Source: an uncultured bacterium (lineage in GTDB: Bacteria; Muiribacteriota; Ozemobacteria; Ozemobacterales; Ozemobacteraceae). Taken from it: a stretch of 41,761 nt of DNA. The translations under genes were made by a program, and so were the position numbers. Under the pieces are notes generated by a model, which saw nothing but the letters and a program-made list of their open reading frames with translations, ran no database searches and was not told where the DNA came from. Below, in pieces: positions 1-19,703 of this stretch. Each line of letters starts with the position of its first letter. The stretch's first letter is position 1. The DNA lies in assembly GCA_964613435.1 (NCBI GenBank), contig CAZTHA010000002.1, positions 1 through 41,761 of the forward strand, in the 5' to 3' direction.

Positions 1-597
1 GCAAACCGGATGCTTGGACGAGCAGATGATGATTTCTGAGCCTTTTACGGCGGTTCCGCAGTTGGCGCAGTTCATGATGCTGTTTTCATCTATTTTCTCT
101 GCCTGGGTTTCGGACAATACTTTGTCGCTGGCGCTGTAATAAGATGAAAAGTCGAATGTATCTATGGGAAACCTGCTGCCATTTTGACTGGCCCACTTGG
201 CCGCCTCGCCATTGAGGGGGCTTTTCAGGTTATAACTCTGGTAGGAAAGCATTTCGCCGATGCGCACGATGAGATTGGGAAGAGATTCCCCAGCTGCCCA
301 GTGGTCACCGATGCAGATGGCATGGGGAGCAATGTTGGGATGAAATACCGGCGTAAGCATTCGGCACTGGGGTGGTTGACGGGGATAAGAAGCCGAAAGA
401 TAGATTTCGGCAATATGGTTGTTTTTTACCTTAACGGAGCCGTCAGGGTTCATTACCAGGCTGTTGACCAGAAATTCGATCTGATACTTTTCAGGCGGAT
501 GACCGGTGGCAGCTTTGATGTGAATGCGACTTTCCTCATTGAAGGTAGCAACAATTTTTTCGTAGTCTGACTGTAGACGTCGGTGTCTTATACTCAT
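1..597 (-). CDS. Ubiquitin-conjugating enzyme (E2/UBC-fold) homolog with C-terminal Cys-rich zinc module; C-terminus runs off the window
   Basis: Absent from the ORF track because there is no stop inside the window. Hand translation of the minus strand from ATG 597..595 stays open for all 199 codons to base 1: MSIRHRRLQSDYEKIVATF...EIYLSASYPRQPPQCRMLTPVFHPNIAPHAICIGDHWAAGESLPNLIVRIGEMLSYQSYNLKSPLNGEAAKW... UBC landmarks present: N-terminal RLQxDY helix, YPxxPP, HPN triad (334..342) and a Cys 9 residues after the His (Cys95, 313..315). From aa 177, CANCGTAVKGSEIIICSSKHPVC repeats the CxxC-x11/12-C opening of the zinc fingers in the two upstream genes. ATGA overlap with the preceding gene (594..597). 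Confidence 0.85.
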   Translation of the reverse strand, partial: MSIRHRRLQSDYEKIVATFNEESRIHIKAATGHPPEKYQIEFLVNSLVMNPDGSVKVKNNHIAEIYLSASYPRQPPQCRMLTPVFHPNIAPHAICIGDHWAAGESLPNLIVRIGEMLSYQSYNLKSPLNGEAAKWASQNGSRFPIDTFDFSSYYSASDKVLSETQAEKIDENSIMNCANCGTAVKGSEIIICSSKHPVC

Positions 598-1931
598 CGG
601 TTAGGTTCCTTTTCAGCCAGCTGGCCGGCTCCTGAAAGGGCAAGCAGTTCAAGCCATTCTGGTTCGAGCAGCTGGAAAAATTCATCAATTGCAATTGAAA
701 AGTTTAGGCCTTCAGTGGCGGTTTTGGCATATATCCAGGTGTTTACTCCGATCAGGTACCCTTCGAGGTCATAGAGCCCGCCACCGGAATTGCCGTGATT
801 GAGCGGAGTCTGCATCTGAACGACGGTTATTTCTCTTGAACCATGTCGATTTTTGCGCAGGGCAGAAATCACGCCATCGGTGTATGTCCAGTTCAGGCCG
901 ATAGGATTACCGATGGCAAATACTCTTTGTCCCATTGTAAGCGCGCGGCCTTGCTGGTATTTCAGCTGAGGAACGAACCCGTTGGGGGTGCTCACTCTGA
1001 TCAAGGCCAGATCAATTTCATCTGGTGCCAGCCAAACCGGGGTTGCCCCCGTGGTTTCGCCGGAGTAAAAGGTCACTTCGACGTTGCCGGCCTTTGCTTT
1101 CAGCTCTTCAAGAGATTTTACCCGGGTTCCGAGGGTGAGCACATGGGCGTTGGTCAAAATGTAAGTGAAGGCGTCGCGGTTACAAAGGGCTATTCCTGAA
1201 CCCATGCCCATTCTAAAGCCACTGCCGGCTTTGATGTGAACATTTGCCATCAGCGGGCCTTTGATGGCAGGGGCCGCTGTGCGAATTGCTTCGCCAATTT
1301 GTTTCATATCCGGTTTGAATTGTTCGCCCTGTTCGGTTTCGGGGTTCATCAGGGGATAAAGGGTGAGCAACAGAGCGATAATGGCGCTGCCCATTCCGGC
1401 AAAAGACAGAGGCAGGCCTTTACTGGTGCTGTTATTTTGAAAGGTTGCGATTGAAATCGCGCCGACCAGGACTGAAACCAGACAACCGCCAAGAGAAAGC
1501 AGAAAGACTGCCGTCTGGTATTCGGAGACCTTTTCGGTCGAAAAATTGACGAGGCTTACTGCAAGGGTACCCAGGCCGATAACCAGGGCAAAAATCGCCA
1601 GGGGTGACCAGGTCAGCTTTTGTTGCTGCTGAATCTCATCAGCAATGGCCGCGGTACCATATCTGCTGTTGGCCGGAACCTCTTTAAGATTTTCAAGGTC
1701 AGCTTTGGTAATAACGATATCAGCGGAGCCACCGGTAATTGGGGCGGAACTGCCGGCCCGGCAATGATAGCTGCCGCAACCGCATCTTTGCCAGCAGATT
1801 TCGTGGTTCATCGCCCCGCATTTGTGACAAATGTAAGCTGCTTCGCCCTCTTTAAGGGGTTGCAGGCACGATGGGCATGCTGTTCCAGCTCTAAGGCCGT
1901 CTACGATAATTCTGTCTCCGTTTGTGTTCAT
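594..1931 (-). CDS. Membrane protein: N-terminal C4HC3 RING/PHD-like zinc finger, 3 predicted TM helices, C-terminal trypsin-like (S1/Trypsin_2) serine protease
   Basis: 445-aa ORF. Finger at aa 19-57: CPSC-x12-CHKC-x4-H-x2-CW-x2-CGCGSYHC. Hydrophobic segments at about aa 108-130, 140-164 and 173-195. Catalytic triad contexts: LTNAHVL (His263, 1143..1145), DLALIRV (Asp307, 1011..1013), GNSGGGLY (Ser382, 786..788). ATGA overlaps at both ends. Confidence 0.85.
   Translation of the reverse strand: MNTNGDRIIVDGLRAGTACPSCLQPLKEGEAAYICHKCGAMNHEICWQRCGCGSYHCRAGSSAPITGGSADIVITKADLENLKEVPANSRYGTAAIADEIQQQQKLTWSPLAIFALVIGLGTLAVSLVNFSTEKVSEYQTAVFLLSLGGCLVSVLVGAISIATFQNNSTSKGLPLSFAGMGSAIIALLLTLYPLMNPETEQGEQFKPDMKQIGEAIRTAAPAIKGPLMANVHIKAGSGFRMGMGSGIALCNRDAFTYILTNAHVLTLGTRVKSLEELKAKAGNVEVTFYSGETTGATPVWLAPDEIDLALIRVSTPNGFVPQLKYQQGRALTMGQRVFAIGNPIGLNWTYTDGVISALRKNRHGSREITVVQMQTPLNHGNSGGGLYDLEGYLIGVNTWIYAKTATEGLNFSIAIDEFFQLLEPEWLELLALSGAGQLAEKEPNR
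1761..1877 (-). other. C4HC3 cross-brace-type zinc finger (RING/PHD-like, candidate prokaryotic RING) module 1
   Basis: Ligand pattern C19-x2-C22-x12-C35-x2-C38-x4-H43-x2-C46-x3-C50-x-C52-x4-C57, with Trp directly after the 6th ligand. Boundary Cys codons checked on the DNA (gca at 1875..1877 and 1761..1763). Confidence 0.65.
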
Positions 1932-2599
1932 TTGAATACCATCGAATAAAGGATGAAAATTACGGCTATCGCTGCCCAGAGAACCGAAATAGCCATTGCC
2001 GCATAAAAAAGAACTTTCAGGGATGGCGGCAGGCGCTTGGCTCTGAAACTCCAGCTATCGGTAAAAGCTGCGATAAGGTTCAACGGCAGCATGATGAAAA
2101 CGAGGCAGCCGATGGTGCTAAAGACAAATTGGGCAATGACCGCTGTTTTTATTCTTCCGAGTTCTTTTTCGTCATAGATTCGGTCTTGCCACTCGACCTT
2201 GGTCATCGGTCGTTCGGTTGGAAAAGTCGCTTTACATACCTTGCAGACAAGGGCATTTGCGATGATGCTCGAACCGCATTCTGGGCATTTTTTTTCGGCA
2301 GTCCAACCTGGGGTGAAAATATCCTCCGGAACTGCTTCCTTGGCGACAGTGACCGGTGCGGCCGCACAACCGTAGGTGCCGCAACCGCCGATTTCCTGCC
2401 AGCAGTCATGGTGGTAGGGCAAAGAACACTCTGGACAGACGACAATGGTGTCGCTCTGCATTATTCCGGTGCCACAGGTCGAGCAGATTTTGCCGATGTG
2501 TTCAGCAGATGGAGAAACTGGACTAACCTGTACTCTTTTGCCAACGTTTACTGGCCGCTGCATTTTTCCGGTTTTACTGCCAGGTTTGAGGGTGTTCAT
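1928..2599 (-). CDS. Membrane protein: C4HC3 RING/PHD-like zinc finger, a second CxxC..CxxC zinc ribbon, 2 C-terminal TM helices
   Basis: 223-aa ORF. Finger at aa 39-78: CSTC-x12-CPEC-x4-HH-x-CW-x5-CGTYGC, paralogous to the finger in 594..1931. Second ribbon: KCPECGSSIIANALVCKVC. Hydrophobic segments at about aa 150-176 and 190-222. ATGA overlaps at both ends. Confidence 0.8.
   Translation of the reverse strand: MNTLKPGSKTGKMQRPVNVGKRVQVSPVSPSAEHIGKICSTCGTGIMQSDTIVVCPECSLPYHHDCWQEIGGCGTYGCAAAPVTVAKEAVPEDIFTPGWTAEKKCPECGSSIIANALVCKVCKATFPTERPMTKVEWQDRIYDEKELGRIKTAVIAQFVFSTIGCLVFIMLPLNLIAAFTDSWSFRAKRLPPSLKVLFYAAMAISVLWAAIAVIFILYSMVFK
2366..2485 (-). other. C4HC3 cross-brace-type zinc finger (RING/PHD-like) module 2
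   Basis: C39-x2-C42-x12-C55-x2-C58-x4-H63-x2-C66-x6-C73-x4-C78, again with CW after the His. Boundary Cys codons checked (gca 2483..2485, aca 2366..2368). Confidence 0.65.
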
Positions 2600-3696
2600 G
2601 ATCTTTCCTTTTGCTGAAACTCAAGCAGACTTTCGCCAATAATGATGACATCGCCTTTTTCAAGAACTTTTCTGGCGACTCTCTGTGAGTTGACAAAAAC
2701 GCCCTGAGGGCTGTTCTTGTCGATAACCTCAAATTTGCTGCCAACCTGTTTGATTTCAGCGTGATGCGGCTCAACGGCGGGATCTTTGAAAATGTAGACA
2801 TCGCATTTTGGTGAGCTGCCGATTATAGTCGGATTGTGGTAGATTACGAATTGTTTGCCTCTGAGTGGGCCAGTTTTCATGATCAACCAGGCGTCTTTGG
2901 TCAGATTCTCGACCAGTCCGGTAAATACTCCGACCATCAAGCCAATGATACAGAATCCGATCATACGGCTGGTACCGCCAGAGTCAGCAAAGCCGAGCTT
3001 CGTAAGTGAAAAGCCAATTGGGTCAAAAAGCAGTCCGCCGAGGAAACCGCCAAGAAGCCCACCGACCATGCCGTTAAGAAGGAGTTTTTTCGATTTCAGG
3101 GCAATGCCGGGTCCAACCCCCATGCCGGCGCCGACTATTGTCCAGGCCATGGCTCTGGCACTGATCAGAACAAAAAGAATGCCAGGGGTAAGGAAGGCCA
3201 GCGGGTCAGCCGGATTCGGTTGCTCTGAGGGCATATTTCTTAGAAAGAACGGCAGACCAAAAGCCTTGACCAGGTTCATCGCAAAACCGCCAATCATGGT
3301 ACCGACAATCCCCCAGACCAAACCAATGCCGACGCCAATTCCGCCACATCGCATGGCCTTGAGAAAGTTTCGCGACATTATGCCTTCGATCAGGCCAACG
3401 AACAGACCTATCATTGCTGGTACCGCGACGAGCATCATTAAAATGCCGGAGCCCCGTTCTTCAGAAGAACCGGGGGAAGTAATGAAGGGCTCGAACAGTG
3501 CCCAGGCAAGAAAAGCCCCGGCTAGTCCAGCTGCTGCCGTATAAAAAACCGGATTCAACCAGAACGCGGTTTCTACCGGGGCTCTTTCGGCGGGGGTAAG
3601 CTGGCGTCGAGCCGCCTGGTGAGCCATAAGCATGTCTTCCACTTTGGGGTCACGCAGATCTCGTTTGGTTATGACAATGGTTTCTTCTTCTGCCAT
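2596..3696 (-). CDS. Polytopic glycine-zipper-rich membrane protein with C-terminal FHA (phosphothreonine-binding) domain
   Basis: The track ORF 2596..3726 begins at a TTG. An in-frame ATG at 3696 is preceded by GAGAGGAAAAAA (good SD), so 3696 is preferred. About 6 TM segments rich in GxxxG runs (GGIGVGIGLVWGIVGTMIGG, GMVGGLLGGFLGGLL). The C-terminal ~85 aa (2617..2874) read GKQFVIYHNPTIIGSSPKCDVYIFKDPAVEPHHAEIKQVGSKFEVIDKNSPQGVFVNSQRV...GDVIIIGESLLEF, a typical FHA pattern (G-R/S...S..H..I...G.....D..S.NG..VN). Confidence 0.8.
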   Translation of the reverse strand: MAEEETIVITKRDLRDPKVEDMLMAHQAARRQLTPAERAPVETAFWLNPVFYTAAAGLAGAFLAWALFEPFITSPGSSEERGSGILMMLVAVPAMIGLFVGLIEGIMSRNFLKAMRCGGIGVGIGLVWGIVGTMIGGFAMNLVKAFGLPFFLRNMPSEQPNPADPLAFLTPGILFVLISARAMAWTIVGAGMGVGPGIALKSKKLLLNGMVGGLLGGFLGGLLFDPIGFSLTKLGFADSGGTSRMIGFCIIGLMVGVFTGLVENLTKDAWLIMKTGPLRGKQFVIYHNPTIIGSSPKCDVYIFKDPAVEPHHAEIKQVGSKFEVIDKNSPQGVFVNSQRVARKVLEKGDVIIIGESLLEFQQKERS

Positions 3697-3722
3697 TTTT
3701 TTCCTCTCTGCCGGTGGGGCCG

Positions 3723-4994
3723 TCAAAACAGCCAGGGCAACTTCTCTTTCAATCCGGGTTCAAGACGCGGGTCGAGTTCGATTATGTGGCGAATTAAAGC
3801 TTTGGCTTCGCCAAGCCGGTTGATGTCAGGTGGCGATGCCGATAGAGCAACCAGATAGGGGGTAAGTTGCACCAGCAGACTTTGCGCAATCGTTTGCCTG
3901 AGCTGTTTCATCAGTTCTTCAGATTTTTCGGTCGTGCGCAGGGGCTGGTTGGTTACTGATTCAAGGGCACTCTGGACTCTTGTGCGGCGCTCAACAGAAG
4001 AAGAGGCGATTTCGTCGAGACGAATCTGCAGGGCGCTGATTTCAGAACTAAGTTCGGCTGTCGCCGAGGCAAACTCACTTGAATTGGTCATCTGCTGATG
4101 AAAGCCGTCGGAAAAAGCCTGCAATTTCCCCTGCAGTTGTCGAAGCTCTTCGGCGGCGGCGGTGTCTGCGGCCCAGGCGCCCAGCAATTCTCGGGTTTCG
4201 GCTCTGGCGGTTTTGATTATTTGATCGGTCAAAGCTCTTTGCAGCAATGTCGTTGCCAGAGAAAAACCGATTAGAAAGGCCAGTGCCAGAGTAAGGTAAC
4301 GATATGTAGATCCTTCTTCACTGGGCGATTCGAGCTTTTCTGACGTTGGCTGGGCCGGAATCGGTTGTTGTGAATAATTGGCCTGAGCCGGGAATTTTTC
4401 GCGAATCTCTTCGCTGCCAACCGCGCCCTGGGTAAGACGGTGCATTTCTTCGCCGACCCAGCAGCGTGACAAAGCCCGGGTTTTGCCTTCGATCCAGGCG
4501 AACAGGCCTTCTTTGGAATTGATTGGATCGATTACCAGCGCTACTTGAAACGGTTGATTGAAAAAATAGTCCTGGATGAATTTGTCCATGTCGGAGAGGA
4601 AAATTCCGAAACCAGGGTGGGTGTGATACCAGCCGACAATTGCCTTGTTTTTAAACTTGGCTTCCATTTCGGCATGAATGTAATCCCAGGTTTCATGAGT
4701 GAATGCAACCTGTGCGCCTTCGTTTCTGGCATGTTTGCCTCGAATGCTACCGCTGATGACCAGATATTTTCCTGAGTCGTCCTGGCAGGTTGTGCCGACG
4801 AGAATGCCGCAAAGCTCTACTGCCACGGTTTCTTTGGCGTGCTCCTGAAGCTCCTGATAAACTGATTTTTCAATTAAAACTCTTGGTTCATCATTGTTCT
4901 GGCCGGGAAAAGGTTTATTCTTTTTCTCGTGGGCATCGTAGCCTTTTTGAAAATCAAGGCCTTCAACTGCGGGCTGGATGTTTTTCTGAGTCAT
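3723..4994 (-). CDS. JAB/MPN (JAMM) metallopeptidase, candidate Ubl-processing/deconjugating enzyme, with a TM helix and C-terminal coiled-coil region
   Basis: JAMM motif E77 (VAVELCG) plus H141-T-H143-PGFGIFL-S151-DM-D154 (4584..4625, codons checked). TM-like segment YRYLTLALAFLIGFSLATTLL, followed by heptad-like, Q/E/L-rich sequence. Start set at ATG 4994 (AGGAAAGG SD upstream, 4 nt after the E1 stop). The track start at 5045 would overlap E1 by 47 nt. Confidence 0.85.
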   Translation of the reverse strand: MTQKNIQPAVEGLDFQKGYDAHEKKNKPFPGQNNDEPRVLIEKSVYQELQEHAKETVAVELCGILVGTTCQDDSGKYLVISGSIRGKHARNEGAQVAFTHETWDYIHAEMEAKFKNKAIVGWYHTHPGFGIFLSDMDKFIQDYFFNQPFQVALVIDPINSKEGLFAWIEGKTRALSRCWVGEEMHRLTQGAVGSEEIREKFPAQANYSQQPIPAQPTSEKLESPSEEGSTYRYLTLALAFLIGFSLATTLLQRALTDQIIKTARAETRELLGAWAADTAAAEELRQLQGKLQAFSDGFHQQMTNSSEFASATAELSSEISALQIRLDEIASSSVERRTRVQSALESVTNQPLRTTEKSEELMKQLRQTIAQSLLVQLTPYLVALSASPPDINRLGEAKALIRHIIELDPRLEPGLKEKLPWLF

Positions 4995-4998
4995 TGTT

Positions 4999-6213
4999 TC
5001 AGCCTTTCCTCGAGAGGGTACCCAGCAGCTTTTCGCGATCGCCATTGAGCAGCCAGGTTTTCTGGTTTTCGCCGTCTCTGCCTAAAAACACGTCGAATGC
5101 CGGAACTCCCAGTTCGGCGAGAGTCATCTGTTGCCAGGGCTCACTGCCATCGAACTGATGCGCCAGAATTGGGAAACGTGGCTTTTTGCAGTTTGGACAG
5201 ATTGCTGCTGACTCCTTGACGTTGCCGAGCGAGGCATGAAATTCAGTTTCAATATTGCATTCGCTACAGGAAAAGCCGGTGAGAACTTCCTGGCGAAGTT
5301 CAAGAACCGCCGATTCACCGAGATCTTTTCGGATTATCTGCAATGCCTGCGCCAGGGACAATTTATCGGCCTGGGCATCGAGTTCGATGATCGGCAGGTA
5401 ACTTTCATGGGAAAAACAATCGGCTTTGCGCTTGTAACTGATCACATCCTGGTAAAAATTGAGGCCTTCGAAGATGTAGCCCTTGCCGGAAATGACTTCC
5501 ATGCCGTGCAAAAGCTTGATCGCTTCCTGACATTGTATTGCGGCGATAACGCTGGCAATGGTCGGAGTGGTCGGGGTTTTTCCAGACATCATCTCTTCTC
5601 GGGTCAGCAGAGTGCAGGATTTACGCGCATTAAGTATTTTCCAGTCGACTTCGCTCATTGTACACTCATAGCACGGGCCATCAGGAGAAAAGGCTCGCGC
5701 GATACCGCTTAGGCCTTCTATTGCTCCATCTATCCAGGTTTTTCCGCAGCGAAAAGAATTCTGGTTAATGGCCAGGCGTGCTTCACGATTATCGAGTCCG
5801 CCAAGGATAACGTCGGCCCAGAGAAAAGCGCCCAGGCCAAGATCGGTGACTGCGTTCAGGCAAAGAGCTTTGATGTTGATCTCGGGAAGGATGTCTCTGG
5901 CTCTTTCTGCAGCAACTTCTGCTTTTTGCCGGCCACGATCGGCTTCACGAAAAAGAATAGATCGCGACAGGTTTGAAGGCTCTATCTGGTCGAAGTCGAC
6001 GACGAGAATATTTCCGATGCCAACCAGGGCGAAATTCTTGATAATTTCATTGCCAAGGGCCCCGGCGCCAATAACCAGTATTTTGGCGGCACTGAGCTTT
6101 TTTTGGTCCCACCAGCGAATCAGTTCAAAACGTGAAAAACGGTTTTCTTCCTGATTTGGGTCGATGTGCAGGATTTCAGGGGCTTTATCGGAATTATTCT
6201 GGTCTGAATTCAT
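4999..6213 (-). CDS. E1-like adenylating enzyme (ThiF/MoeB/UBA superfamily) with C-terminal zinc-ribbon domain
   Basis: 404 aa. Rossmann GxGxxG VIGAGALGNE (6052..6069), VVDFDQIEPSNLSRS, GGLDNREAR, CYEC zinc pair, and a candidate crossover-loop catalytic Cys200 (RKSCTLL, 5614..5616) ahead of TPTTPT. C-terminal CSECN-x17-CPNC ribbon. ATGA overlap with the Ubl gene. Confidence 0.85.
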   Translation of the reverse strand: MNSDQNNSDKAPEILHIDPNQEENRFSRFELIRWWDQKKLSAAKILVIGAGALGNEIIKNFALVGIGNILVVDFDQIEPSNLSRSILFREADRGRQKAEVAAERARDILPEINIKALCLNAVTDLGLGAFLWADVILGGLDNREARLAINQNSFRCGKTWIDGAIEGLSGIARAFSPDGPCYECTMSEVDWKILNARKSCTLLTREEMMSGKTPTTPTIASVIAAIQCQEAIKLLHGMEVISGKGYIFEGLNFYQDVISYKRKADCFSHESYLPIIELDAQADKLSLAQALQIIRKDLGESAVLELRQEVLTGFSCSECNIETEFHASLGNVKESAAICPNCKKPRFPILAHQFDGSEPWQQMTLAELGVPAFDVFLGRDGENQKTWLLNGDREKLLGTLSRKG

Positions 6214-6488
6214 TCAGCTCTTCCTGCGGTAATTTCAGGCTGAATTCTCAAGATATCGCCGGATTGAACTCCTGCCTGGCGAAAGGTTTCATCGTCAAGA
6301 AGCTGTCTTCCCGAAGCTTTATGATGAAATTTGTAGCTCATCAGCTGGCCATCAGGCGTAAAGCGTGGCAGATTCATCTTGTCGATCAGAAGAATGATTA
6401 TTCGGTTCAGTGCTTCATCATCGGGTAATTCTGCTTTGACTTTTTTGTTACCGGTAGCATCCCAGATTTCTACCATTACTGACCCCAT
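6210..6488 (-). CDS. Ubiquitin-like beta-grasp protein (Ubl) with C-terminal ..ITAG-RAE tail
   Basis: 92 aa, first gene of the operon. SD AAAGGGGA lies 9 nt upstream of ATG 6488. Sequence VEIWDATGNKKVKAELPDDEALNRIIILLIDKMNLP...GRQLLDDETFRQAGVQSGDILRIQPEITAG has ubiquitin-like strand/helix periodicity. Gly89 (6222..6224) is followed by only 3 residues. Assignment rests on size, position before the E1, and pattern. Confidence 0.7.
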   Translation of the reverse strand: MGSVMVEIWDATGNKKVKAELPDDEALNRIIILLIDKMNLPRFTPDGQLMSYKFHHKASGRQLLDDETFRQAGVQSGDILRIQPEITAGRAE

Positions 6489-6550
6489 TGAATATGGTCC
6501 CCTTTTCTATAATTGCAGGTTTGTCGACCTGGTTTTGTAAAAAACATCTA

Positions 6551-6586
6551 AAAAATTGCTCGGTTTGAAAAAAAGTATAAACCCGA
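6551..6586 (-). terminator. Weak candidate intrinsic terminator between the TerB-like gene and the Ubl operon
   Basis: Minus strand reads TCGGGTTT-atactttttttc-AAACCGA, then gcaaTTTTT. The stem is 7 bp with a bulge and is AT-rich. Confidence 0.3.
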
Positions 6587-6670
6587 CCAGAAAATAATTC
6601 AACAAAACAGGATACCACTTCCGGGCGGTTTTTATTGCGGGATCGTAAAAAGATTCTCGGCGCTGTCAGA

Positions 6671-17606: not shown

Positions 17607-19703
17607 ATGAGAATAATACAGGTAGTCAACGCGCTGACATTTGGCGGTGCTCAGGTCATAATTCTCGATCTCGCCAAAAAGTTGCTTGATGAGGGGCACG
17701 CTGTCGAGGTGCTGGCCTTCCGAGACGGTCCAATTGGAAAAAAACTGCGTGATGCTGGTTGCCCAACCCATATTCTCGGCGAAAGCATGCTCGATTTTCT
17801 TGCTTTTCAGCGCTTTAATCGTATCGTAAAGGATTTCAAGCCCGATATCATTCATTCACATCTTTTTCGGGCCACTTTCTGGTCGAGAATGGTGCGAATG
17901 TTCAACCCGCAGGTTTACCTGATAACCTCGGTACATGGGCGGGAGTCGGATTTTTTTCATGCTTGCGAACGCATTACCGCAGGAATTTCCGATTATATTA
18001 CCTTTCCAAGTGAATATTTGCGGCAATGGTATCTGAAGAATATTCGCAAGTTGCCCAGAACGCGAACTGGGGTCATATATCCTGGAGTGGACATTGTTTC
18101 TGAGATTTCTGCTGACGAATTTACCGACCAATACCCGTTGCCGGTTGTTGGTACCTTGTCGAGGCTCCACCCGGTAAAGGGCGTAGATCTGCTGATTCGT
18201 GCCGCCGCCAAGCTCAAACAAAGAGAGATAGACTTCGAGCTGCTGATCGGTGGTGATGGTCGCCAGAGATCTGAGTTGACACAGCTTGCTGAAAATTTGA
18301 ATATTGCTGAACGCTGCCGGTTTGTCGGCGAGATAGATGATGTTAAGGGCTTTTTGAGCCGGTTTAGTATTTTTGTGGCCGCTTCGCGGCAGGAGGCTTT
18401 CGGCATTCATGTCTGCGAGGCTATGGAAAGAGGGATTCCCGTGGTTGCTGCTCGCATCGATGGCCTGGTCGAGCTGATTGAACACGAGTCCACTGGGTTG
18501 TTGTTCGAGTCCGGCAATGCTGATTCGCTTGCAGATGAACTTGAAAGGCTCATCAAAGATCCGGCTTTGCAAAATTCACTTGCGTTAGCGGCAAGAAACA
18601 AAGTGATTGCAACTTTTAACCGCCGGATCGCTATTGAAAAGCATTTAAAGCTTTATTCTTCGCTGGCCTACCGTCCGCGTCATCTGCACTTTATCATCTC
18701 TTCAGGAGAACTTGGTGGCGGCGAAAGACTGGCTCTAAGTCTTGTTAGAGGGTTTCAGCAAAGAGGCTGGCTGGTTAGCGCAACTTGTTGCGGACAGCCA
18801 CTGACAGACGAATTGCGCGCTTCCGGAATTGAATATTCAAGCTCTGGTTTGCGGCTGGCAGGGTTTTTCTTTGCCCTGCGATCGTTTTTCGATCTTATTC
18901 GTAAAAGGCCTGATTTAATCAGTTCGCACCTTAACAAGGCCAGCTTGTTTGCCGGTGTGTTAGGCAAAATTCTCCGTATTCCGGTTATTTCTCACGTTCA
19001 TGGTCTGAATCGCCGGCTTTATTATACGGGTAGCAGTCACCTCATTGCTGTTTCTGAGGCGGTAAGACAGCATCTGCTCGCTCAAGGCGTCACTGCTGAA
19101 AAAATTACCGTTATTAAAAACGCCGTGCCTTTCAATGCGGCTCAGAATATCAGAGCTCCCGGCGATCCAATTAAAATAGCCGTAATCGCCAAACTGCACC
19201 GAAATAAGGGCCATGAATGGGCGTTAAGAGCTCTTTTACAAAACTCTGCAGCATTGCCAAATTTCGAATTGCATATCCTGGGAGATGGGCCTGAACGAAA
19301 GAATTTGAAAAGAATCTGTGACGAGTTGGACAAAAAACGTCAGGTTCACTTTTATGGTTTCATAAAAGATGTGCGCCCGCATCTTGAAAAGATCGATCTG
19401 GCGTTGCTGCCTTCGCTTGGCGAAGGAATTCCACTAAGTCTGCTTGAAGCGATGAGTTTGGGAATCCCGGTTGTGGCCACCAAAGTGGGCGGTATCCCGG
19501 AAATAGTTGAAGAAGATCGCAATGGGCTGCTTGTGCCGCCAAACGACACCGAGGCTTTGATCGGTGCAATTTCCAGAGCGACGGATCTCATCAATTATCA
19601 GCGACTGAGCCGCGGCGCGCTGGAAAAATTCTCTGAGTTAAACGATTTCGAAGAAATGGTTGAAGAAACGGCATCGGTTTTTGCTGAATTGTGCAGTAAA
19701 TGA
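17607..19703 (+). CDS. Fused tandem glycosyltransferase (two GT-B/GT4-like modules in one 698-aa protein)
   Basis: Two copies of the GT4 C-terminal signature: EAFGIHVCEAMERGIPVVAARIDGLVELIEHESTGLL (first half) and EGIPLSLLEAMSLGIPVVATKVGGIPEIVEEDRNGLLVPPND (second half). Each follows an N-terminal GGAQ/GGGER-type Rossmann start. Confidence 0.8.
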   Translation: MRIIQVVNALTFGGAQVIILDLAKKLLDEGHAVEVLAFRDGPIGKKLRDAGCPTHILGESMLDFLAFQRFNRIVKDFKPDIIHSHLFRATFWSRMVRMFNPQVYLITSVHGRESDFFHACERITAGISDYITFPSEYLRQWYLKNIRKLPRTRTGVIYPGVDIVSEISADEFTDQYPLPVVGTLSRLHPVKGVDLLIRAAAKLKQREIDFELLIGGDGRQRSELTQLAENLNIAERCRFVGEIDDVKGFLSRFSIFVAASRQEAFGIHVCEAMERGIPVVAARIDGLVELIEHESTGLLFESGNADSLADELERLIKDPALQNSLALAARNKVIATFNRRIAIEKHLKLYSSLAYRPRHLHFIISSGELGGGERLALSLVRGFQQRGWLVSATCCGQPLTDELRASGIEYSSSGLRLAGFFFALRSFFDLIRKRPDLISSHLNKASLFAGVLGKILRIPVISHVHGLNRRLYYTGSSHLIAVSEAVRQHLLAQGVTAEKITVIKNAVPFNAAQNIRAPGDPIKIAVIAKLHRNKGHEWALRALLQNSAALPNFELHILGDGPERKNLKRICDELDKKRQVHFYGFIKDVRPHLEKIDLALLPSLGEGIPLSLLEAMSLGIPVVATKVGGIPEIVEEDRNGLLVPPNDTEALIGAISRATDLINYQRLSRGALEKFSELNDFEEMVEETASVFAELCSK

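Follow-up and report, generated by a model that had tools for sequence, protein, structure and literature searches.

A probable membrane-associated ubiquitin-like conjugation operon of the Prok-RING_1 class in a Riflebacteria contig

Operons in which prokaryotic RING-type E3s are encoded beside an E1, an E2, a JAB peptidase and a ubiquitin-like protein (Ubl) are credited to Burroughs, Iyer and Aravind (2011) in later papers (PMC4197634, PMC10557695, PMC5654768), one of which names Actinobacteria, Planctomycetes and Acidobacteria as carriers (PMC4197634). The RINGs of prokaryotes have the C4HC3 order of metal ligands (PMC11354881). The subject here is a locus at positions 1-6488, on the minus strand, of a 41,761-nt stretch of Riflebacteria DNA (contig CAZTHA010000002.1; the whole stretch is called the window below), which we hold with good confidence to be most of a chromosomal, membrane-associated Ubl conjugation operon of the Prok-RING_1 class, with a mechanism that we infer. 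It shares with the operons of 2011 the RING family (Prok-RING_1, Pfam PF14446), the C4HC3 order and the transmembrane (TM) helices after the finger and, judged by the descriptions in the citing papers, also the partners, namely E1, HPN-type E2, JAB and YukD-like Ubl. Bacterial members of Prok-RING_1 carry, according to the Pfam description, TM helices C-terminal to the finger, and in the abstract of the 2011 paper YukD-like Ubls are reportedly proposed to be conjugated by such systems. Planctomycetes and Acidobacteria are carrier phyla in common (PMC4197634). By these accounts of the 2011 work the operon belongs to the Prok-RING_1-associated Ubl conjugation kind predicted then, to which it adds a member from Riflebacteria. 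The novelty implied in the initial annotation is not supported, as the prediction of 2011 is cited in three papers (PMC4197634, PMC10557695, PMC5654768) and Prok-RING_1 is already in Pfam; the operon is well defined and widely conserved, and its kind would be no surprise to a specialist.

The searchable literature yielded no experimental characterisation of a bacterial version of the operon, and the papers found there call such bacterial systems only 'uncharacterized' or 'rare'. One survey found the complete ubiquitin toolkit in no bacterial genome (PMC4327156), a statement that the census given below contradicts. An archaeal Ub/E1/E2/RING/Rpn11 operon conjugates proteins after reconstitution in vitro, and the pro-ubiquitin of Caldiarchaeum was shown experimentally to be trimmed to its C-terminal glycine by the Rpn11 homologue (PMC5654768), so that the earlier statement that no such system had been reconstituted can stand at most for the bacterial version. 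The Caldiarchaeum subterraneum operon also encodes a Ubl precursor that is extended by a C-terminal tail, a single-chain E1, a UBC E2, a RING E3 and a JAMM peptidase, but its proteins are described without membrane anchors, FHA or protease partners, whereas four proteins of the window operon are membrane-anchored. Its RING is a small C3H2C3 (RING-H2) finger, in contrast to the two or three paralogous C4HC3 RINGs of the window operon, and its ubiquitin ends in Gly-Gly where the window Ubl ends in Ala-Gly.

Among bacteria, the Bil and Bub systems and Cap2/Cap3 of the cyclic-oligonucleotide-based antiphage signalling system (CBASS) have E1, E2, Ubl and JAB-type deubiquitinase chemistry in common with the window operon, but their core gene sets as described contain no RING E3. 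The E2 of Bil has a CEHH motif (PMC11354881) in place of HPN and its Ubl is two-domain and ISG15-like rather than a single beta-grasp; with the BilABCD models of PADLOC, there was a weak domain-level match for BilD (4.2e-8) and none for the Ubl or E2. Bub includes DUF6527 and a serine protease, BubE (PMC11601596), which contradicts the earlier remark that known bacterial Ubl systems lack protease partners. The protease of the window operon is instead of the trypsin/HtrA type, and DUF6527 has no Pfam match in the seven operon products or in the product of the gene upstream. Cap2 of CBASS is an E1-E2 fusion, whereas E1 and E2 are separate genes here, and no CD-NTase was found among the Pfam-scanned open reading frames (ORFs) of the window. 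Bil and CBASS are defence systems; no defence context was seen for the window operon. No NCBIfam model passes its cut-off for the operon proteins. In eukaryotes, the E3s of endoplasmic-reticulum-associated degradation (ERAD; Hrd1/Doa10 with Ubc6/Ubc7) and the MARCH proteins are membrane-bound and their cytosolic fingers recruit a soluble E2~Ub, the RING-CH fingers of MARCH having the C4HC3 ligand order. Compared by description, the likeness of the window operon to ERAD and MARCH is at the level of domains; unlike ERAD it has no Cdc48 or proteasome partner within the operon, and it adds to both an FHA protein and a putatively extracytoplasmic HtrA-like protease fused to a RING.

All seven genes of the operon, in the order Ubl, E1, JAB, FHA protein, RING, RING-protease and E2, are found as minus-strand frames in the six-frame ORF list (Table 1), and the junctions are exactly as the initial annotation had given them. 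Stop and start codons overlap as ATGA at 6210-6213, 2596-2599, 1928-1931 and 594-597, the E1-JAB spacer is 4 nt with the JAB start ATG at 4994, and the JAB-FHA spacer is 26 nt with the FHA-protein start ATG at 3696. Gene callers picked the same JAB and FHA starts on related public contigs (products of 423 and 366 aa). The E2, RING, JAB, FHA and protease genes are predicted to be translationally coupled to the E1 gene. Pfam matches were obtained for 7/7 products, six of them above the gathering threshold (GA), and the profile searches agree with the initial identification of a Ubl, an E1, a JAMM peptidase, an HPN-Cys E2, an FHA domain, two fingers and a trypsin-like protease. A hydropathy scan likewise agrees with TM helices in four of the seven proteins, with 3, 2, ~6 and 1 hydrophobic TM-like segments. 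The description as a 'seven-gene' operon is right for the window rather than for the system, because the E2, which starts at 597, is cut where its frame runs off the left end of the window, and the operon continues in close relatives, which add a third RING and a DUF2752 protein.

Table 1. Features of the operon, its flank and an additional partner. Positions are those of the window unless another contig is named; ORF, frame in the six-frame list.
Feature	Position	Strand	ORF	Description
Ubl precursor, 92 aa	6210..6488	(-)	6210-6488	Pfam YukD 34.4 bits (GA 27)
E1 activating enzyme, 404 aa	4999..6213	(-)	4999-6213	ThiF/UBA adenylation domain, Cys200, C-terminal four-Cys domain
JAMM/JAB metallopeptidase, 423 aa	3723..4994	(-)	3723-5045	N-terminal JAB, one TM helix, helical C-terminal domain
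Polytopic FHA membrane protein, 366 aa	2596..3696	(-)	2596-3726	~six TM segments, C-terminal FHA (phosphothreonine-binding) domain
Membrane RING protein, 223 aa	1928..2599	(-)	1928-2599	N-terminal C4HC3 Prok-RING_1, zinc ribbon, two C-terminal TM helices
RING-3TM-protease fusion, 445 aa	594..1931	(-)	594-1931	N-terminal C4HC3 finger, three TM helices, C-terminal HtrA/DegS-like serine protease, no PDZ
E2, N-terminal 199 of ~295 aa	1..597	(-)		UBC core, HPN + Cys95, start of Cys-rich CxxC tail; ends at contig end
Intergenic region upstream of Ubl gene	6489..6670	(-)		182-nt gap to upstream gene
Tim44/TerB gene, 798 aa	6671-9067	(-)		Directly upstream of operon
DUF2752 membrane protein, small, CPGCG motif	L007 5254-5742	(+)		49.4 bits

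The census was made by a pattern scan with one genome per species, in which an E2 of the operon type was present in 204 of 185,579 species genomes. Orthologues were collected and aligned from 80 related loci. Synteny was counted in those with at least 7 kb upstream of E2 (n=52), and 44 of these have the same order, Ubl-E1-JAB-TM/FHA-(RING)-RING-RING/TM/protease-E2, so that the neighbourhood check proposed in the initial annotation does not refute its reading. The conserved locus occurs in Riflebacteria (the lineage of the window, Ozemobacteraceae by best hits), in many Planctomycetota including Brocadiia, and in Verrucomicrobiota, Sumerlaeota, Hydrogenedentes, Acidobacteriota including Holophagaceae, and Myxococcota (Kofleriaceae, Haliangium), the gene order being kept across at least seven phyla. 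A Victivallales locus has E2 and RING genes with an upstream flank too short for the synteny count. Genomes of Gimesia, Planctomyces and Haliangium are among the carriers in the census. In alignments of 43-132 orthologous sequences, the catalytic motifs of E1, JAB (E...HxHx7Sx2D), protease, RING and E2 are kept by at least 90%, and the same holds in the orthologues compared for the two cysteines that had been proposed as catalytic, Cys200 of E1 and Cys95 of E2. Identity to the window proteins in other phyla is 60-71% for the Ubl, 45-57% for E2, 44-54% for E1 and 26-41% for the RING, protease, JAB and FHA proteins. By these figures the Ubl is the most constrained component and the ligases are among the least, a gradient similar to that of the eukaryotic system.

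The conjugating enzyme matches Pfam UQ_con with 44.2 bits (GA 27). FHPNIAPHAxCxGDHW is conserved among 79 E2 orthologues, and H86-P-N and C95 are invariant in an 18-sequence alignment. The closest solved relatives by sequence are eukaryotic Ubc13 and Rad6, and the AlphaFold2 model of a full-length orthologue (mean predicted local distance difference test score, pLDDT, 81) has Ubc13, UbcH5, Ube2K and Rad6 as its top Foldseek matches (probability 1.00, target TM-score ~0.6). In the fold checks proposed in the initial annotation, the E2 orthologue model for 1..597 matched UBC and the model for 6210..6488 matched ubiquitin, so that its reading was not refuted by either. The E2 is accordingly modelled as a classical UBC fold. 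Full-length orthologues, which are 295 aa long and 77-95% identical, extend into a Cys-rich tail of CxxC repeats. This tail of ~120 aa (residues 175-295 of orthologue P0001; window 1-100) has at least 10 conserved CxxC pairs, lacks a Pfam match and takes the form of repeated beta-hairpins in the model (pLDDT >90). The E2s of the Planctomycetia group match the UBC core only and therefore appear to be without the Cys-rich tail. An unannotated stretch of a Haloferax plasmid is 32% identical to the E2 tail alone.

The Ubl is modelled by AlphaFold2 with a pLDDT of 89.7 as a single beta-grasp with the order beta-beta-alpha-beta-beta. Its best Foldseek matches are ubiquitin, Caldiarchaeum ubiquitin (6fj7, 6fno), NEDD8 and SUMO, at a target TM-score of ~0.8, and the model points to a ubiquitin-like beta-grasp fold. 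The end of the protein, LR[IL]QPEITAG, is invariant in ~48 loci from distant phyla; either the stop codon comes next or there is a short tail of variable sequence, which in the window is RAE, three residues after Gly89. An invariant glycine end with a removable tail is the pattern of a precursor that is trimmed to its C-terminal glycine, and the mature C-terminus is predicted at Gly89. In a large protein collection the Ubl family amounts to 1,855 clusters at 90% identity, and those of its members that are named are called 'EsaB/YukD family protein'. We know of no YukD/EsaB family member that is conjugated. Neither an EssC/FtsK-type ATPase nor WXG100 of type VII secretion is present in the window or in the related loci examined, and a reading of the Ubl as a type VII secretion YukD/EsaB protein was rejected on gene context.

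The E1 matches Pfam ThiF with 171.5 bits (2.1e-50). Its best sequence matches in the PDB are eukaryotic UBA7, UBA1 and UBA3 at ~1e-24, those to ThiF and MoeB structures being weaker (~1e-19 to 1e-17), and at least 90% of 43 orthologues retain the nucleotide-binding GAGALGNE (GxGxxG), DNREAR, the CxxC zinc site CYEC and SC(200). The JAB protein matches Pfam JAB (40.8 bits, 2.2e-10) and Prok-JAB (8.8e-8), and E60 and the motif GWYHxHPxFGxFLSxxD are conserved in 51 orthologues. Its TM helix lies at about residues 233-252, one TM segment being found in 34/39 orthologues, and is followed by a helical domain of ~170 aa that would be periplasmic by the same logic as is applied to the protease below.

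The FHA protein matches Pfam FHA with 52.5 bits (6.9e-14) and Yop-YscD_cpl at 2.3e-12, and its gene takes the same position in 62 loci. The 223-aa RING protein, which scores 47.6 bits against Prok-RING_1 (GA 29.1) and whose two TM segments recur in its orthologues, is a candidate E3. All eight C4HC3 metal ligands of the finger are invariant in 27 sequences sampled from 130 distinct fingers, and the finger profile matches PHD fingers and the RING-H2 E3s EL5, Pirh2 and Arkadia, a result that fits a binuclear treble-clef finger. The C-terminal domain of the fusion protein matches Pfam Trypsin_2 with 85.1 bits (1.1e-23) and NCBIfam degP_htrA_DO at 3e-32, under the cut-off of the latter, and the His, Asp and Ser triad of this domain is conserved across an alignment of 72 orthologues. 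Three TM segments separate finger and protease, also in the orthologues, and the mean number of K+R is 3.0 before TM1 (the N-flank), 0.3 in loop 1 and 2.0 in loop 2. The protease domain is closest to the extracytoplasmic or periplasmic proteases HtrA, DegP and DegS. Because of the three TM segments, a K/R pattern that fits an N-terminus inside, and the likeness to HtrA, DegP and DegS, the finger would face the cytoplasm and the protease the periplasm.

A working model can be put together from these parts. The membrane-anchored JAMM peptidase would trim the three-residue tail of the Ubl, exposing Gly89, and would also reverse Ubl conjugates. The E1 would adenylate Gly89 and then hold the Ubl as a thioester on Cys200, from which it would be handed on to Cys95 of the E2. 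At the inner membrane, the two or three paralogous membrane RING proteins would dock E2~Ubl with their cytoplasmic fingers and promote transfer of the Ubl to lysines of membrane-located proteins. The FHA protein may couple tagging to threonine phosphorylation, whether it recruits phosphorylated targets or regulates the complex. The HtrA-like domain of the RING-3TM-protease would sit on the periplasmic side and, with the finger in the cytoplasm, one polypeptide would therefore link cytoplasmic tagging to periplasmic proteolysis. The role is most likely regulated turnover, signalling or quality control of envelope or membrane proteins, and this is the least secure part of the proposal. It is possible, although we consider it rather doubtful, that the operon encodes a two-sided machine for membrane proteins, in which RING tagging gated by FHA and phosphothreonine in the cytoplasm is joined to HtrA-like cutting of the same or a coupled substrate in the periplasm.

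A number of observations weigh against the conjugation model or parts of it. The finger of the protease fusion scores 23.4 bits (5.9e-5) against Prok-RING_1, below the GA of 29.1, and a RING is not separable from a PHD-like finger by sequence alone, the profile matches including both. For a ubiquitin-fold domain at the E1 C-terminus, alignment to the Ubl profile with hhalign gave a probability of 2.7%, and a PDB profile search with this C-terminus returned nothing significant, only zinc-ribbon noise. The topology comes from crude hydropathy scanning and from K/R counts rather than from a trained predictor, and the K/R counts at the flanks of the JAB helix are uninformative for the side of the membrane. 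In some Riflebacteria and one Planctomycetota genome, RING/protease-E2-DUF2752 stands alone (L005 3663-6284; L022; L006 8065-11401, the last with extra RINGs alongside), with no Ubl, E1 or JAB within 10 kb of these reduced loci; the reduced module may work otherwise or alone, or the system may be split across loci. The argument for a housekeeping role is circumstantial, and the viral and plasmid collections used for it sample the carrier phyla poorly. Finally, Aravind and colleagues describe E2/E3/JAB prokaryotic operons as mobile conflict systems like restriction-modification (PMC3417536).

This last description leads to the alternative that survives best, an anti-phage or conflict system like Bil, Bub or CBASS Cap2/Cap3, in which the Ubl would be put on invader proteins or on a host effector upon infection and the protease would be the effector. 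The characterised bacterial E1/E2/Ubl/JAB operons act in phage defence (PMC10557695, PMC11601603), and the sporadic distribution (the 204 genomes of the census), weak matches of the protease domain to the PADLOC RT-Protease and LmuA models and a G+C content of the operon slightly above that of its surroundings would suit such a system. PADLOC gives, however, no system-level match and none for the E2, RING, Ubl or FHA proteins, and its matches for E1, JAB and protease are generic and at the level of domains. A collection of 2.9 million viral contigs contains no relative, plasmid records gave two weak partial matches only (31-32% identity over 39-49% of the query), and no adjoining defence or mobility genes were seen in the window or at loci L002, L005 and L006, the neighbours in the window being housekeeping genes. 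Defence systems usually diversify fast, whereas the Ubl, E2 and E1 are conserved to an unusual degree between phyla, these core proteins evolving slowly, and the gene order is rigid. On these grounds a resident role is favoured over phage defence, which we regard as unlikely.

Still less probable is that the Ubl is not a protein modifier at all and goes to a membrane lipid, as Atg8 does to phosphatidylethanolamine, or serves as a non-covalent adaptor like YukD/EsaB. Its classification as YukD/EsaB by Pfam and NCBI, the Ala-Gly end in place of Gly-Gly and a membrane-bound machinery, which would suit a lipid acceptor, speak for this; the gene content, no gene of type VII secretion having been seen in the neighbourhoods covered, speaks against it. 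The invariant glycine with removable tails, the E1 cysteine, the HPN-Cys of E2, the RINGs and the JAMM peptidase together are the signature of protein conjugation, and the archaeal counterpart conjugates proteins in vitro (PMC5654768), so that we consider this reading very improbable. A sulfur-carrier or cofactor pair of the ThiF/ThiS or MoeB/MoaD type with unrelated neighbours, to which the sub-cut-off matches of E1 to the NCBIfam ThiF and MoeB models (1e-36 to 1e-30) might point, was rejected on gene context and can practically be dismissed, as the cluster has no thiamine or molybdopterin synthesis genes, the E1 is nearer to eukaryotic UBA enzymes, and conserved synteny contradicts it, the E2, RING, JAB, FHA and protease genes being coupled to E1 and co-conserved in 44/52 genomes.

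Should the proposed Ubl conjugation chemistry be true, bacteria would possess a full membrane-anchored E1-E2-RING E3 Ubl cascade, in at least 204 species genomes of many phyla. Its reconstitution would yield the first bacterial RING E3 mechanism and would test the origin of RING-dependent ubiquitination. The cascade would possibly represent a new type of membrane-protein control, combining Ser/Thr phosphorylation, Ubl tagging and periplasmic proteolysis. If the two-sided arrangement were true as well, the operon would be the functional counterpart in prokaryotes of ERAD or of regulated membrane-protein turnover, with a modifier under ubiquitin-like evolutionary constraint, and the first E1-E2-RING E3 cascade of bacteria to serve housekeeping instead of defence. 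The present analysis adds the cross-phylum census, the third RING and DUF2752, the invariant EITAG site, the conservation gradient and the topology model, and it offers with them concrete constructs and candidate organisms for a reconstitution.

The genes beyond E2 were taken from an orthologous contig (L002/L007) with a 95% identical E2, the sole exact-protein match being a 5-kb contig that also ends inside E2. On L002/L007, E2 is followed by a third Prok-RING_1 membrane protein (30.3 bits) and then by the DUF2752 membrane protein. Of the 80 related loci, 42 have a DUF2752 gene on the strand of E2, mostly just downstream of E2 and in Riflebacteria after the third RING gene, and its product is a conserved additional partner of the operon. 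On the public contig the DUF2752 gene was overlooked by the gene caller, which placed a gene of 74 aa on the other strand instead. The number of RING-finger genes is two or three in most loci. Double-zinc-ribbon membrane proteins with no recognisable RING are encoded in 32 loci (e.g. L024 2319-3392; L050 3741-4448), in Planctomycetota just upstream of Ubl or between the FHA and RING genes.

The region between the Ubl gene and its upstream neighbour contains promoter-like hexamers at 6602-6574 and 6669-6642 and a terminator-like hairpin at 6629-6614, all of them consensus matches only, and an AAAGGGG motif ahead of the Ubl ATG at 6488; it probably holds the promoter of the operon and a ribosome-binding site. 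The protein encoded upstream has 5-6 N-terminal TM segments, two zinc-ribbon motifs, a Tim44-like domain (1.5e-20) and a C-terminal TerB domain (5e-10), an unusual architecture. This Tim44/TerB gene was considered as an eighth member of the operon and left out, because other lineages have no counterpart upstream of Ubl. The neighbours of the operon in the window are of the housekeeping type and include DnaB, LpxK, a TonB-dependent receptor and a P-type ATPase; LpxK and the TonB-dependent receptor indicate that the organism is diderm. At 17607-19703 (+) a 698-aa protein with two tandem GT4-type glycosyltransferase modules is encoded, followed by more glycosyltransferase, pyruvyl-transferase and LpxK genes, in what looks like an envelope polysaccharide or lipopolysaccharide cluster.

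The operon is interrupted in three independent assemblies, the window and L001 stopping in E2 and L002, a 69.5-kb contig of a metagenome-assembled genome, beginning in the JAB gene, which hints at variation between strains or at a repeat that misleads assemblers. A further contig of 7.9 kb (L003 1-7861; Logan contig SRR28385527_148486) is a circular permutation of the operon, in which the E2/third-RING end is joined to the end of TerB and the start of Ubl-E1. Its ends overlap by ~440 bp in window coordinates (5235 vs 5672), and a tandem duplication, an excised circle or an artefact of assembly could each account for the arrangement.

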